DNA from: Pseudomonadota bacterium
Lineage (GTDB): Bacteria; Pseudomonadota; Alphaproteobacteria; Rhizobiales; Hyphomicrobiaceae
DNA length: 46,935 bases
Assembly (NCBI GenBank): GCA_963205015.1
Contig: CAUJKI010000276.1
Coordinates: 1 to 46,935 of the forward strand
Reading direction: 5' to 3'
Shown: positions 21,118 to 46,823 of the stretch, piece after piece
How positions within the stretch are numbered: position 1 is the stretch's first letter
How the letters are laid out: each line of letters opens with the position of its first letter
Notes under the pieces: model-generated
The model's database searches: none
Told to the model about the DNA's origin: nothing
What the model saw: the letters and a program-made list of their open reading frames with translations, nothing else
Program-made: the position numbers and the translations under genes

Positions 21118-21627
21118 GTGAACGCGCCCTCGCCGCAAGAGAGAGAGGCCTCGGGGAGAGAGGCTGCTTCTCTCACCCGCTTTCTCGAGCCCGTTCTTCT
21201 TATCGTTCTAGGCGGCGCGGGCGTCGTCGACGGCTGGCGGATCATCACGACAAAGGCGGAGACACCCGGCGGTGTCGAGGCCGGCGGCTGGATCGCGGCA
21301 CTCGGGGGAATGCTCGTCGCCGGAGCCTGCGTCCAAATCGCACGCGATATCCTTCGCGGGCCGGAGGCCGCATCCGCGACAGAGCCCGACGTACTCTTCA
21401 AGCCGCCGGCGATCGCACTCGTGCTGTTGCTGCTCTACGTCGCCCTGATCACCCCGCTTGGCTATGTGCTGGCCACTGCGCTCTTCATGGCGGCTTATCT
21501 CCGGATCTTCGGCCGCTATGGCCCTCTCACCGTCGCGGCAATTGCGATACCATTCGCCGCCGGGTCCGGCTGGCTTTGGTCGGCGTTGAACATGACGCTG
21601 CCGCAGGGCGTTCTCCCGTGGCCTTGA
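21118..21627 (+). CDS. tctB: TTT small membrane subunit
   Basis: About four TM helices, LGYVLAT..F, LPQG near the C-terminus; lies between tctC and tctA. Confidence 0.85.
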   Translation: MNAPSPQEREASGREAASLTRFLEPVLLIVLGGAGVVDGWRIITTKAETPGGVEAGGWIAALGGMLVAGACVQIARDILRGPEAASATEPDVLFKPPAIALVLLLLYVALITPLGYVLATALFMAAYLRIFGRYGPLTVAAIAIPFAAGSGWLWSALNMTLPQGVLPWP

Positions 21628-29931: not shown

Positions 29932-31842
29932 CTACTTGTCCGGCAAGGCGAACTGGATACCGCCGTAAACGGACAGGCCTGGCGTGCCGTAGCCGAGCAC
30001 TGTCTGATACTTCTCGTCCAGCAGGTTCTCCGCACGAATGTAAGCCTTCATTCCAGGAGTGAACTCGTAGGCGACCTTGGCGTTGATCAGCCAGTAGTCA
30101 TCCAACTTCGCACCCCCATCAAGCGTATCGGCGATATATCTGGCGATCACGTTGGCCTGGATCTTGTCCGTTGGCCGCAGGTCAAGACCGACGGAAAGAC
30201 TGTGCCGCGGCACCCGTGCCAGCCGAGCGCCGCTCGCCTGCTCGGTATCGGTGTAGGTGTACCCGCTCGTCACCGTAATGCCGGAGGAAATCTTCGCCGC
30301 CGCAGTCAGCTCGACACCTTCGCGCTTGGTCACGCCGGGCACGTTGATCAGACAGGGAACACCAGGCGGGCCGCATGTAGGGTCAAACGTGATCAGGTTG
30401 AGTGTATCGATCTCGAAGTAGGTGGCCGCGAGCTTGAACCTACCATTGTAGAAGCCCTGCTCGATGCCGACATCCCAGCTCTCGCTCTCCTCAGGGAGAA
30501 GATTAGGGTTGCCGTACTCCGGATACCAAGGCGGGTAGTTGGTGTACATCTCATCCAACGAGGGCGCACGGAAGCCGGTCCCTCTGCTGGCCCGGAACTT
30601 GGTTTCAGTGCCGGGGACGAGATAGGCGCCAGTGATGCGGTGCGTACTGAAGTCACCAAAATTGCTATGATCATCGATACGCCCACCAGCAGTCAGGATG
30701 AGGCCAGGAATCGGCTCGGCCATAAGCTGAGCGTAGACGCTGGCGACGTCGGCAGAGAACCTGCTGCTTGGATCATTGCTGCTGCGCGCACGCGTCTCTT
30801 CCCAATCACCCCCGAAGAGTAGCGACAGCCGCTCGTTGAACTTCAAGACACCCTTGTACTCGGCCTTGACGCGATCCCCTTCGAACCAATAGGTCCGTGC
30901 TCCAGAGCTGAAGCCGTCGCGTTCGATCCGCATGGCCTGAACCGCGAATGTGTTCTGAAGGGCGCCATTCAGCAGATAGAATTCAGTTCCGACGCGCGCA
31001 GCCTGCTGAAAATACTTCGCGCTGTCCGCGGTATCGGTAGGAGGCCAGTCGAGTTCGACGTTGGCTCTGGTGGAGCGGGCTGCAAAGAAGATCTTGGCAC
31101 TCGGCGACAGATAGTACTCACCGCGCCCAGAGAACGTCAGATTGCGATAACCGTCGTCTTCAGTGCCAGCAGCGGCGGCCGAAAAGCCGTCCGTGTTCAC
31201 GCCCTGGACGGTGAAGGAGATGTTGCTGCCGTCCGCAGTCAGGTAACCGGCTGTGTAGGCGCCGCGCCACGTATTGTAGGCGCCATACTCGACGCCGCCG
31301 CTCTGCGAGAAACCGAGCTTCCTTGCGGCCTTCGTCTCGATGGTGATGACGCCGCCGACGGCATCGCCGCCATAGAGTGTGCTCTGCGAGCCCTTCAGGA
31401 CTTCAATTCGAGCAACATCACCCACTAGAAGGTGCTCGAAGTGCGCAGCCGTAACCGTGCTCGACGGATCACTGACATCGATGCCGTCAACCAGGACCTT
31501 GACGTAACCGCCGGTGGTGCCGCGCAAACTGATCGTGGATGTTCCGCCGGGACCAGCTTGAGAGAAATGCACACCCGGCAGCGTCTCGAGGTAGTCCTTG
31601 ACGTATGTCTGCGCGCGCGCCTCGAGTTCTCTCTCGGTGATCACCTCGACCGACGAGCCGACCTTTGCCGCGTCGGTGGGCGTGCGGTTGGCCGAATAGA
31701 TCACGATGCCCTCGAGCGGCGTCGTATCCTGCGCGCTGGCCGACGACGTCATCGCGGGCAACAACGCACATGCGGCAGCGAAAGCCACCCGAGAGACGCC
31801 ACATGCTCGCCTCGGAGCGCGAACACGAACCCGAATAGTCAT
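29932..31842 (-). CDS. btuB: TonB-dependent cobalamin receptor
   Basis: ANRTP....VGSSV.VIT, LPGV, VLVDG, RIEVLKG.QSTLYG.DA.GGVI.I, GFRAPS, NLLDEKY....GY; downstream of a cobalamin riboswitch. Confidence 0.9.
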   Translation of the reverse strand: MTIRVRVRAPRRACGVSRVAFAAACALLPAMTSSASAQDTTPLEGIVIYSANRTPTDAAKVGSSVEVITERELEARAQTYVKDYLETLPGVHFSQAGPGGTSTISLRGTTGGYVKVLVDGIDVSDPSSTVTAAHFEHLLVGDVARIEVLKGSQSTLYGGDAVGGVITIETKAARKLGFSQSGGVEYGAYNTWRGAYTAGYLTADGSNISFTVQGVNTDGFSAAAAGTEDDGYRNLTFSGRGEYYLSPSAKIFFAARSTRANVELDWPPTDTADSAKYFQQAARVGTEFYLLNGALQNTFAVQAMRIERDGFSSGARTYWFEGDRVKAEYKGVLKFNERLSLLFGGDWEETRARSSNDPSSRFSADVASVYAQLMAEPIPGLILTAGGRIDDHSNFGDFSTHRITGAYLVPGTETKFRASRGTGFRAPSLDEMYTNYPPWYPEYGNPNLLPEESESWDVGIEQGFYNGRFKLAATYFEIDTLNLITFDPTCGPPGVPCLINVPGVTKREGVELTAAAKISSGITVTSGYTYTDTEQASGARLARVPRHSLSVGLDLRPTDKIQANVIARYIADTLDGGAKLDDYWLINAKVAYEFTPGMKAYIRAENLLDEKYQTVLGYGTPGLSVYGGIQFALPDK

Positions 31843-32099
31843 ATGACCCCGTCACGATTGATGGACGGGAGCACCGGCAGTTGCGGCCCGAAGGGCTCGG
31901 CGGAAACGGCTGCTGCTTGAGGTGGCCGCCAAAGCAGTCAAATCCCTCAGCAACCCGCTTCAGCGAGCGCTATCTCTGATCTGTCAGTAGGTAAAGAAGA
32001 CCCCGGGCATTTTCTGACGTAGCTCCCAATCGGTTGCACATCAGTCGCCGCTACGGGTAACCGTTCCACCGCGCGGCCCGCACGGGGGATGGGCGACTC

Positions 32100-32315
32100 G
32101 TGCCGGCAGGTCTCCTGGCTCGCGGCTCAAGCATCGCTCTCCAGCCTTCCCGACAGCTTTGGCCGCCGTCAGTGGCATATTTGGAGAGGACTCGCCGCTT
32201 ACAGTTGCGGGCGCAGCCACGGGATCAACGCGGGGGCTCCAAGAAGCGTCGCGTCTCACCGTGTTCCCTCTAGGCCATACGTACCTGCGTACATGTGGCC
32301 TCACCGTCACGCGTT
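32100..32315 (-). ncRNA. Cobalamin riboswitch
   Basis: Minus strand GACGGT...AGGGAACACGGTG...GCCCGCAACTGTAA...GCCACTG...GGGAAGG...GAGCCAGGAGACCTGCC (B12 box), upstream of btuB-cobTCS. Confidence 0.96.
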
Positions 32316-32317
32316 CA

Positions 32318-32346
32318 AATGCGCCTCAAGACACGTTCGCTGTCAA
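32318..32346 (-). promoter_or_regulatory. Putative sigma70 promoter of the B12 operon
   Basis: TTGACA (32346-32341), N17, weak -10 (CGCATT), ending just before the riboswitch. Confidence 0.5.
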
Positions 32347-32450: not shown

Positions 32451-33713
32451 TCATGGTGCCTCGTTCAACGCCTTTCCGTCGGCGGGGCCGGTTGCATCGC
32501 TGCCCATGCGGAAGCGGTGCCCATCAAGGTCTTCGACATTCATCTCGCGCACACCCCAGGGGAAATTGGTCGGCTCCTGACGAATGATCGCACCGCGGCG
32601 GCGATAGTCCTGATAGAGGGCATCGACGTCCTGCACGAAAATCGACATCCAGGCGCCGGGGCAACCCTGCGACCCCTGACAGAGAAAAATGCGAACCTGG
32701 TCGCGATGGACGCATCCGAACGTGGGGGGTGTGCCCCAATCCCATTCCTTGAGGAAGCCCAGCTTTTCGACGTAGTAGGCGATCGACGCCGGGACATCCT
32801 TAACGTTGAGGATCGGAACAGCAGACTCGAACCGATTGGCAGTCTGCTCTGCTGGATCGGCGCCGGCGGCCACCAGCAGCTCGGCAATTCGCGGGTCGGT
32901 CTGGGGCGAAGCATAGCTCAGCGCGGTATTGCCGCGATCATCCTTCATGGTCGGGTCAGCACCGAGCTGCAACAGAAGTTCAACCATTTCCGGCCGATTC
33001 TTCAGCACTGCAAAATGCAGCGGCGTGCGCCGGCGCTCGAACCGGCTCATCTGACGGGACAGAAGCCGCGGGTCGCGCTTCACGAGGGCGCGAACCAGAT
33101 CGGCACGATCGAGCGCTATCGCAGCAAATATGGTCGGATGAGCGCCGCGCGCGAGGAGCCAATCCGCAACCTCCTGCTGGACCGTCCGGAAGCACGTCGC
33201 CCAGCCGATGACGCCCATCTCGTGCTCGTCACCGGCACCATCGATATCGGCGCCTGCGTCCACGAGCCGCTTCGCGACCTCGAGACGACCGTCCTGGGCC
33301 GCCCAGTGCAGCGCGGTCGCATGGTCAAGCCGGTCGCGCTCATTGACATCGACGCCATATCCGAGCAGCAGCTCGACACAATTCAGGTGGCCACCCTCGG
33401 CGGCGAGATGAAGCAGCGGCCGGTTCCACTGCCCACCGGATATGGCGAGCTTGGACGGATGCTCGCCCAGCAGACGCGCAAGCGTGCGCGCATCGCCCTG
33501 AACGGCAGCGGCAACGATCTGGCCGTCCAGACTCAGCGTGTCGACATGCGCTTTGAGAGCGCGCCAACTCGCAAATCCATACTCCCGCGCGATCTCGAGC
33601 TGCGCCTGATGCAGCTTGGCGGCGGGCTCACCGACACGCAGTTCAGCAAGCCGCTCCTTCGCGGATTTCTTCAACCAGTCGAGATTGGGCTGGGCCGGAA
33701 GCGCCTTGGGCAT
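32451..33713 (-). CDS. Fusion of a small helical N-terminal domain, ankyrin repeats and a VOC/bleomycin-resistance-like domain
   Basis: N-terminus LP.QPNLDWLKK.AK...LHQAQLEIAREYGFASW..LKAHV; ankyrin units (PLLHLAA, TALHWAA, TPLHFAV, TALSYA, GAD); C-terminus VPILNV.DV..SIAYY..KLGF...DVDALY...PWG.RE..V.D.DG. Confidence 0.9.
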   Translation of the reverse strand: MPKALPAQPNLDWLKKSAKERLAELRVGEPAAKLHQAQLEIAREYGFASWRALKAHVDTLSLDGQIVAAAVQGDARTLARLLGEHPSKLAISGGQWNRPLLHLAAEGGHLNCVELLLGYGVDVNERDRLDHATALHWAAQDGRLEVAKRLVDAGADIDGAGDEHEMGVIGWATCFRTVQQEVADWLLARGAHPTIFAAIALDRADLVRALVKRDPRLLSRQMSRFERRRTPLHFAVLKNRPEMVELLLQLGADPTMKDDRGNTALSYASPQTDPRIAELLVAAGADPAEQTANRFESAVPILNVKDVPASIAYYVEKLGFLKEWDWGTPPTFGCVHRDQVRIFLCQGSQGCPGAWMSIFVQDVDALYQDYRRRGAIIRQEPTNFPWGVREMNVEDLDGHRFRMGSDATGPADGKALNEAP

Positions 33714-33836
33714 GTGACACCTTCTTTCTCATGCGCCCGGTGTCCGCGTCTCGGGCCAGAAAGAAGATGCTGAAGCACTTGGTAGCTGAGGTGGGTTCAA
33801 CCCTTCACGCGGACCGTCGGTCGCCTGCTCGACCGG
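33714..33836 (-). ncRNA. Candidate structured 5' leader RNA (pseudoknot, RBS-sequestering)
   Basis: 12-bp helix 33758-33769/33718-33729 covering the SD; inner helix 33752-33756/33735-33739; loop 33742-33749 complementary to 33807-33814; 5' hairpin 33818-33835. Confidence 0.65.
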
Positions 33837-33842
33837 AGCCGA

Positions 33843-33870
33843 ATTATCCCAGCTTGGGAACTTCTGTCAA
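33843..33870 (-). promoter_or_regulatory. Sigma70 promoter of the ankyrin-fusion gene
   Basis: TTGACA-N16-GATAAT on the minus strand. Confidence 0.7.
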
Positions 33871-33958
33871 ACCCAGACCACTCAGCATTCGTCAGAGCTC
33901 CGCAGTCCGCCCATGGAGCAGCGGCACGATCTGTTCCAGGAGATGCACGCCAGCGTCC

Positions 33959-45704: not shown

Positions 45705-46823
45705 ATGCTCGCCACTGATACATTCGCGGCCCAGCGTACGGATGCAACAGCCGCAAGCGTGACCATCGAAGGCTTGGTCAAGTCCTTCGGTGGCGTCGTG
45801 GTCATTCCCGATCTCTCGGTGTCGTTTCAGGCCGGGGCGATCTCGGTGCTTCTTGGCTCGAGCGGCTGTGGCAAGACGACGATCCTCCGCTGCATCGCCG
45901 GCCTCGAGGAGCCGTCCGGCGGCGACATCGTGATCCATGACCGGACGGTCTTCTCCGCGCGGCAGCGGATCAACATTCCGCCCGAGCGCCGTGATCTCGG
46001 GATGGTGTTCCAGTCCTATGCGATCTGGCCGCACATGACCGTACACGAGAACGTGGCCCTGCCGCTGCGGGCGCATGGCGTGTCCAATGCCGAAACGCAG
46101 GCGCGGGTACGGGATCTGCTGAAGCTCGTCGGTCTGGACGGGCTTGGCGATCGCAACGCCACGCAACTGTCGGGCGGTCAACAGCAGCGCGTCGCGATCG
46201 CCCGCTGTCTCGCCAATCAGCCGAAGCTCATCCTGCTCGATGAGCCACTGAGCAACCTCGACGCCAAGCTGCGCGTGGCCATGCGCTCCGAGCTCAGGGA
46301 GTTGCAGCGACGGCTCAATGCGACGATGATCTTCGTAACCCACGATCAGGAAGAGGCGATGTCGCTCGCCGACGAGATCTTCCTGTTCCGCAGCGGCCAT
46401 CTGGAGCAGCGCGGACCGGGAGCCGAGCTTTACCGGCGTCCGAAGTCACGCTATGTCGCCGAGTTCTTCGGCAAGGCGAACCTCGTCGATGCGGCGCTTC
46501 ACGCGGTCGGCGGGCAGCATGAGCTGCGCGCGTCTGCCACGGGCGACACGATCGCAAAGGGCACATTCAATCAAACGGCGGATACTGGCCGCGATTTGCT
46601 TTGCATGGTCCGGCCCGAAACGTGGCGCATCCATCCGCCGGGGAGTGGTGGCCTGCAGGGGCGGGTCGTCGAGGTCACTCTACTCGGAGACCGGCTCGAG
46701 TTGCAGGTCGATACACCGATCGGGCGCCAGTACGTCCTGACGCTCGGCTACGCGCAAGTCGCAGCCGGCGACAGCGTGTCCCTGTCGGTGATTTCAGAGC
46801 ACGTGCACTTCTTGCTCGAGTGA
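45705..46823 (+). CDS. FbpC/PotA-like ABC ATPase
   Basis: [60 protein letters not shown]. Confidence 0.93.
   Translation: MLATDTFAAQRTDATAASVTIEGLVKSFGGVVVIPDLSVSFQAGAISVLLGSSGCGKTTILRCIAGLEEPSGGDIVIHDRTVFSARQRINIPPERRDLGMVFQSYAIWPHMTVHENVALPLRAHGVSNAETQARVRDLLKLVGLDGLGDRNATQLSGGQQQRVAIARCLANQPKLILLDEPLSNLDAKLRVAMRSELRELQRRLNATMIFVTHDQEEAMSLADEIFLFRSGHLEQRGPGAELYRRPKSRYVAEFFGKANLVDAALHAVGGQHELRASATGDTIAKGTFNQTADTGRDLLCMVRPETWRIHPPGSGGLQGRVVEVTLLGDRLELQVDTPIGRQYVLTLGYAQVAAGDSVSLSVISEHVHFLLE

Follow-up and report, generated by a model that had tools for sequence, protein, structure and literature searches.

A conserved leader RNA with two pseudoknots, tied to a small basic protein domain across at least nine bacterial phyla: a candidate autoregulatory cassette

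Results

The window analysed here, a stretch of 46,935 nucleotides from a Hyphomicrobiaceae bacterium, carries on its minus strand, to which all coordinates of the gene and its leader refer, a gene of 420 codons (32451..33713, ATG at 33713). According to profile matches, its product combines a small N-terminal domain with ankyrin repeats (about residues 65-290) and a VOC/glyoxalase domain (residues 302-402), the latter showing a likeness to bleomycin-binding proteins that lies below the cut-off. The gene is preceded by a leader of about 123 nt and by a promoter formed of a -35 box TTGACA (33865..33870) and a -10 box GATAAT (33843..33848) with a 16-nt spacer. This is the sole promoter-like site between 32000 and 35500, where shuffled sequences yield 0.3 ± 0.5. 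From the -10 spacing, transcription is predicted to start near 33836-33834, at the foot of the first hairpin of the leader, and inspection of the sequence revealed no terminator or processing sign between leader and gene. One RNA run contained 5% of the words looked for, and its contigs left the leader uncovered, an outcome that speaks neither for nor against expression. Promoter, leader and gene constitute a unit (32451..33883) found in one other genome of the same genus (G122), with 85% identity over exactly this span and nothing beyond, in a different neighbourhood; the span is unmatched in the other 12 genomes of the genus. No second copy was found in the source genome. A weak match to the RNA model at 46407-46534 of the minus strand (14.6 bits, E 0.048) is probably due to chance. 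Directly downstream of the ankyrin gene lies an ordinary cobalamin riboswitch (RF00174, 106 bits, 32088-32323, minus strand), ahead of a gene for a TonB-dependent receptor (29932-31842).

Taken as a single sequence, the leader shows nothing beyond its promoter that exceeds chance. Its minimum free energy is no better than that of shuffled sequences (z -0.81, 44 of 200 shuffles equal or better), and a perfect complement of at least 8 nt, the length of the pseudoknot drawn in the original prediction, occurs in 232 of 500 shuffles when self-overlapping matches are counted. The significance of the fold thus rests on homologues. When 77 leaders are aligned without regard to structure, the pairs highest in mutual information are Watson-Crick, and two of them had not been drawn before. 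Homologous leaders do covary: three pairs, 33800:33796, 33753:33738 and 33826:33789, beat a tree-keeping null both in this alignment and in a model alignment of 100 sequences, as judged by a custom implementation with 60 null runs in place of R-scape. Next in rank are 33813:33743 (E 0.1) and 33817:33807 (E 0.2). The 20 core pairs are formed in 95.5% of cells against 37-49% when slid, and 17 of them show two-sided changes; the nested pairs were fitted by the covariance model, both pseudoknots were not, and the search pattern itself accounts for part of the invariance seen in the central motifs.

The TTGACA-N16-GATAAT promoter and all helices named in the original prediction are present on the minus strand where it had placed them. 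P1 (33818..33835), identified by folding, is a 6-bp hairpin CGGUCG/CGACCG with loop AGCAGG (33829-33824); C33820 is 99% conserved and the stem reaches at least 4 bp in 82 of 95 scored members. Its loop enters a pseudoknot that was absent from the earlier reading (pseudoknot 1, 33789..33826), in which AGG (33826-33824) pairs with the CCU that follows P3 (33791-33789). Pseudoknot 1 has 4 bp in most members, with 89% of cells paired and two-sided changes in all 4 pairs, and pair 33826:33789, to which the covariance model was not fitted, covaries with E 0.02 against the tree-aware null. P2 (33807..33817), detected blindly by mutual information, is a stem of only two pairs, A33817:U33807 and C33816:G33808, closing the loop GGUCCGC; its identities are CG 83, AU 11 and UA 2 among 100, with a tree-aware E of about 0.2 that is non-significant alone. 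A GAA linker (A33805 96%, A33804 100% conserved) leads to the small hairpin GGGU-UGA-ACCC, P3 (33793..33806 with the linker, 33803-33793 for the hairpin), which holds the top covarying pair, 33800:33796.

The 3' half of the leader is a nested arm. P5 (33735..33756) pairs GCCCG (33756-33752) with CGGGC (33739-33735), and the covariation of 33753:33738 exceeds all 60 null runs. Its loop bears the 3' strand of pseudoknot 2 (33742..33814), a kissing helix between GUCCGC (33814-33809) and GCGGAC (33747-33742), paired in 99.7% of cells and with two-sided changes in 4 of 6 pairs (E 0.1 for 33813:33743), its central pairs being partly fixed by the search pattern. The original prediction had extended this contact to 8 nt, GUCCGCGU (33814-33807) with ACGCGGAC (33749-33742). 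The complement is indeed there, but only 6 of its 8 pairs are conserved: among 98 members, the seventh pair is present in 65%, mostly as G-U, and the eighth in 56%, and U33807 pairs with A33817 in 98%. From these counts we rejected the 8-bp form and prefer 6 bp together with P2. Finally, P4 (33718..33769) is a 12-bp helix with one G-U, in which an anti-SD strand (33769-33758) pairs with 33729-33718, spanning the Shine-Dalgarno (SD) sequence AAGAAGG. Over 98 members the median P4 energy is -15.6 kcal/mol with own arms, -9.4 with foreign arms and -7.5 with shuffled arms; own arms are top-ranked in just 8 of the 98. P1 and P4 stay below significance column by column owing to register slips, and are supported by stem counts and duplex energies.

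On this comparative evidence the leader would form an H-type pseudoknot at its 5' end; P2, the AA linker and P3 would all lie within the long loop of this knot, and the P2 loop would kiss the P5 loop over 6 bp. The fold first proposed thus keeps its listed helices but needs two pseudoknots, a 6-bp kissing helix and an extra 2-bp stem. The comparison of homologues also supports the earlier claim of a conserved structured leader predicted to bury the SD. In the upstream DNA of 100 members, TTGAC lies 47-53 nt upstream of the invariant P1 C in 34 of 39 occurrences, and 61 of the 100 have a variant -35 box. Since TTGAC stands at a fixed distance before P1 across members, the RNA is predicted to begin at P1.

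A search of Rfam 15, which could have ended the novelty of the leader, gave nothing at gathering level on the window leader and, with the threshold relaxed to E 10, just an unrelated lncRNA (E 6), in line with the earlier view that it matches no known riboswitch class. Among 20 loci of the short and sister leader classes described below, only a tRNA matched Rfam. The sul1 motif (RF03058), considered as a possible relative, was rejected: its model does not match the window, and its gene context differs, consisting of sulfate transporters and related genes (PMC5737381). Searching 61 relatives gave no sul1 match anywhere, and the controls were likewise unmatched.

The leader family is closely tied to the N-terminal domain. 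A search with the first 63 residues in 151 same-family genomes gave 21 distinct genes, all 21 with a related leader (19 long, 2 short). With the covariance model, 25 matches including the window leader were obtained in 151 genomes of the order, and 25/25 directly precede the domain; the initial impression that similar leaders precede other genes with this domain was correct. A protein-first search of the same 151 genomes returned 37 domain matches, of which the 29 at E<=1e-10 comprise 25 genes with a long leader, 3 with a short one and 1 with none. The 8 weak matches are 2 internal repeats, 2 proteins of the Glyoxalase_8 family (PF20066), one of them with the sister leader, 2 helicase-like proteins and 2 without leader. 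In a phylum-wide sample of 16 domain genes, 2 lack a recognisable leader and 3 have a weak-scoring one only. Domain genes showing no leader include L039, L042, L389, L390 and L215; in L042, a single case, the first helix has lost the equivalents of K15 and K16. The domain fused to a helicase-like P-loop domain occurs at L391 (G550:C16) and L393 (G572:C1), whose upstream blocks in common are possibly a further leader class.

A pattern scan of a species-genome collection, blind to the downstream gene, gave at least 120 matches, which were scored on three structural features outside the pattern. Among the matches listed, 86 show all three features: 83 of them precede the domain, 2 are followed by a domain-like start that the end of the contig cuts off, and the remaining one is an orphan. 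With two features, 17 of the 18 listed precede the domain, and with fewer, 1 of 16; the remaining low-feature matches look like chance. The orphan (L049, around 2001-2072) is an intact leader without a domain gene behind it, possibly a decayed cassette. The titles of the 80 records listed place the matches in Acidobacteriota, Pseudomonadota, Actinomycetota, Verrucomicrobiota, Gemmatimonadota, Myxococcota, Planctomycetota, Armatimonadota and Methylomirabilota, hence in at least nine phyla, lower taxa being assigned to what we take to be their phylum. Only 1 of 8 matches in a viral pattern scan is a real leader: a long leader with a domain gene in a phage Y11 record marked unverified (L199, about 21250-21600), with bacterial-looking flanks.

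The literature covered by our full-text searches contains no description of the leader family. Neither "ankyrin" nor "glyoxalase" occurs in the portion of the main text of PMC5737381 that was accessible, one supplementary file of PMC8632094 gave no match to the leader, and the available part of preprint 10.64898/2026.10.21.760802 names no such leader; the family may be among the 1.52 million unnamed motif clusters reported there. We conclude that the leader belongs to a real, uncatalogued cis-regulatory RNA family of at least nine phyla, absent from Rfam and from the literature searched.

The N-terminal domain (residues 1-58, 33540..33713), recognisable by the pattern LP..P.L..LKK.AK / AQ..IAREYGF.SW, is modelled by AlphaFold2 (pLDDT 88.5) as three helices, 11-28, 34-44 and 50-57, with conserved residues K15, K16, K19, Q38, R43 and W50. 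In 70 domains, of which 64 were chosen via their RNA or are the window's own, positions 15, 16 and 19 are basic (K/R) in 99%, 86% and 100%, Q38 is kept in 93% and the net charge is positive in 67. The domain is repeated in some proteins. In the best 150 profile matches, which are selected for conservation and thus inflate that of first copies, first copies retain K15 in 114/121, K19 in 119/121 and Q38 in 118/121, whereas later copies have K15 in 13/57, K19 in 24/57 and Q38 in 20/57, with A42 and W50 still present in 56/57. This loss in later copies, with fold residues kept, points to K15, K19 and Q38 as a putative binding surface required only in the N-terminal copy.

Searching with the domain profile yields 10,885 clusters at 50% identity. 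Fold searches with the 58-residue model found nothing at Z>=5 or Foldseek E<=0.001 (best Z 4.8), a sequence search of the PDB returned only a designed-looking helical protein (E 0.0065), and the atlas matches are unnamed clusters at 0.84. PADLOC gave a single match (E 0.006) on 70 members. The parts fused to the domain vary: in 40 proteins the C-terminal part is ankyrin in 34, VOC only in 1, LON-N in 1, a pentapeptide repeat in 1 and of no family in 3, and FliG_C and FliM flagellar switch domains were found among 30 further proteins scanned (P0036, P0043, P0074). Fusions to a VOC domain that resembles bleomycin-binding proteins occur in all three leader classes (long, short and sister).

PF20066 matches the window protein with 14.3 bits (E 0.044), below its cut-off of 23.7. 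HHalign nevertheless assigns a probability of 96.6-97.2% to homology between the domain and the N-terminus of PF20066, whose ~55 first positions form a homologous three-helix domain; the window protein lacks the rest of this family. A different conserved and knotted leader lies directly after a TTGAC-type promoter at 27 of 30 PF20066 loci (drawn from 34 matches; L207, L215 and L226 are without it). In this sister leader, which the window's RNA model does not detect, the loop of the first hairpin pairs past a GGUGAA motif, and a long-range GCUCGC/GCGAGC helix shows compensatory changes in 24 aligned sequences, counted without a tree-aware null. In the sister leaders (L201-L230, L043, L044), two C-N-C-C stretches are alternative candidate partners of GGUG, an arrangement that, judging from sequence, may act as a switch.

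We estimated the cost of opening the ribosome-binding site (RBS) from nested folds without pseudoknot terms. In the window leader it is 8.5 kcal/mol when the core is free to refold, an ordinary value for this genome that 60% of 300 genes reach, and 15.4 kcal/mol when the core is held folded, a value reached by 7% of genes. Among 98 long members, locking the core raises the cost by more than 1 kcal/mol in 69 and lowers it in 16; in 150 control genes the same test raises it in 38 and lowers it in 57. The folded core is thus predicted to favour the OFF state in the long leader.

In a short variant of the leader, a plain hairpin takes the place of the kissing helix, and P1, pseudoknot 1, the linker and P3 are all retained; this identifies the 5' core as the conserved unit. 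The variant precedes the domain in 114 of the 119 metagenome matches listed, and the one full protein scanned ends with a VOC domain. Bases adjacent to the start are complementary to the pseudoknot strands, in two registers across two subfamilies. Holding the core lowers the median opening cost from 13.8 to 5.9 kcal/mol, with a fall in 96 of 98 members against a control shift of -1.35. The short variant is therefore predicted to be wired ON, opposite to the long form, and this is the main result against simple negative feedback; in the model, it fits a riboswitch, positive feedback or trapping of the S15 type. The short-variant loci (L025, L027, L198, L231-L233, L237-L355) lie ahead of genes that join the domain to a VOC domain, and many of them have no obvious SD. 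At L198 (pRL11, 375386-376033) the short-leader VOC gene lies between genes for an IS91 transposase and a tyrosine recombinase.

Discussion

We propose that promoter, leader and domain constitute an autoregulatory RNA-protein cassette, a reading to which we assign a probability of about 0.55. The small basic domain would bind the folded 5' core of the leader, with a site probably made of P1, pseudoknot 1, P2, the AA linker and P3, and thereby set the translation of its own protein. As the kissing helix links this core to the P5-P4 arm, stabilisation of the core would lock the SD helix (opening cost 8.5 to 15.4 kcal/mol), bury the SD and close a negative feedback loop. The cassette would travel as a whole and become joined to many C-terminal domains, through which binding may be modulated. 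The knot of the short variant would free the start region, so that repression would require trapping of the ribosome, as with Escherichia coli S15, and feedback would otherwise be positive. Autoregulation is favoured because the leader is almost exclusive to one domain while the C-terminal parts vary, because the basic residues are conserved as K/R and lost in later copies, because the homologous PF20066 domain has its own related leader, and because locking the core raises the opening cost more often than in controls. It is disfavoured by the ON logic of the short variant, which a ligand aptamer typically shows and which is hard to reconcile with negative feedback, by the 16 of 98 long leaders that shift in the same direction as the short variant, and by the domain genes that show no leader. 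The tie between leader and domain is itself weakened as evidence, since any leader that is inherited together with its gene stays linked to that gene, regardless of what triggers it.

The 5' pseudoknot core could instead be the aptamer of a new riboswitch class. Its ligand would be a small molecule or an ion, perhaps a toxic compound on which the VOC domains act, and binding would switch the long form OFF by way of P4 and the short form ON; we consider this rather unlikely. A multi-helix junction with two pseudoknots and near-invariant unpaired adenines is what such an aptamer would look like, and the leader does combine a complex conserved core with an expression platform, the motif invariance coming in part from the search pattern. 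That one core sits on two platforms of opposite predicted logic, and that bleomycin-binding-like VOC domains recur in all three leader classes, also speak for a ligand. Riboswitches, however, usually also precede unrelated genes of one pathway. Here all intact leaders precede the same domain instead of non-homologous genes with a common metabolic theme, and none was seen before a gene lacking the domain among the pattern, model and short-variant matches listed. The downstream domains have no evident common metabolite or pathway, and a ligand would explain neither the basic surface confined to first copies nor the sister RNA of a homologous domain. Comparative evidence on the trigger thus favours the domain over a small ligand.

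Two further readings appear improbable. The leader might be a ribosome-standby or S1-binding element on which the 30S subunit loads while the RBS is sequestered, as in tisB mRNA; translation would then be constitutive and slow, nothing would serve as its dedicated trigger, and the function of the domain would lie elsewhere. The 5' pseudoknot, the linker of about 20 nt and the strongly paired RBS reproduce the tisB layout (PMC7708055), and the folded core of the short form frees the start region. Standby would work, however, without junction nucleotides of invariant sequence, without a kissing contact to the SD arm and without an exclusive link to a single domain family. Alternatively, leader and domain could form a working ribonucleoprotein or a damage sensor, in which a nuclease or an RNA-damaging drug cuts or releases the leader, removes the anti-SD strand and so induces protective ankyrin/VOC proteins. 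The strict pairing of RNA and domain, partners that include ankyrin, Imm1, pentapeptide and bleomycin-binding-like folds, and the patchy, mobile-looking distribution of the cassette would suit this idea. Against it stand the leader-gene junction devoid of terminator or processing sign, the lone PADLOC match (1/70 members) and the lone real leader among 8 viral pattern matches.

Autoregulation by the domain, if confirmed by binding, would reveal a large new RNA-binding family, give a role to the uncharacterised N-terminus of PF20066 and provide small RNA-protein pairs usable in synthetic control; should a ligand bind instead, the leader would represent a new and common class of riboswitch. With a protein of 58 residues and an RNA of 123 nt, it is cheap to decide between these readings. 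Beyond this lies a tentative generalisation that we hold at distinctly below even odds: RNA-binding domains of ~55 residues would constitute an unrecognised superfamily, with about 10,900 clusters at 50% identity, and would spread together with their cognate multi-pseudoknot leaders as a portable cassette for self-control, its one RNA core wired OFF or ON and the C-terminal domain (ankyrin, VOC, LON-N, flagellar switch) gating binding. Were it true, this would amount to a widespread form of one-component post-transcriptional signalling in which orthogonal RNA-protein pairs occur naturally. PMC5737381 links the combination of a multi-helix junction, two pseudoknots and a wide phylogenetic range to biochemically sophisticated RNAs; the leader fits this profile, yet it is absent from Rfam and the literature searched.

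Among known systems, the E. coli rpsO (S15) operator (RF00114) is similar in being a pseudoknotted leader of its own ligand's gene, with two alternative folds and control at initiation by trapping (PMC3616713). Our leader likewise overlaps the RBS of the gene for its ligand protein, here putative, and occurs only before the cognate gene (25/25, 83/86 with 2 at contig ends and 1 orphan, and 114/119 of the matches listed). It differs from the S15 operator in having no sequence or model match to it, in its two pseudoknots and separate SD helix, and in its putative partner, a portable domain carried by proteins outside the ribosome, and it ranges over at least nine phyla. The tisB +42 mRNA also places a 5' pseudoknot upstream of a sequestered RBS (PMC7708055). 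No toxin-antitoxin layout or antisense RNA is seen here, however, and the kissing helix ties the knot to the RBS arm.

PreQ1-II and preQ1-III, both translational riboswitches, have an H-type pseudoknot in which loop 3 contains a hairpin. Our 5' core resembles them in its general topology, conserved junction nucleotides and translational platform, but its loop 3 has two helices, one of which kisses the SD arm, it is tied to a domain and not to metabolism, and no Rfam model matches it. In ANTAR proteins and the BglG/LicT antiterminators, a small RNA-binding domain is fused to varied sensors and acts on structured leaders. The ANTAR domain is likewise three-helix and of about 55 residues; homology to it (PF03861) was rejected, HHalign giving 0.4-1.0% against 22 ANTAR domains and 97.2% for a positive control. 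In contrast to both of these systems, every gene considered here comes with a leader of its own, a double-pseudoknot RNA.
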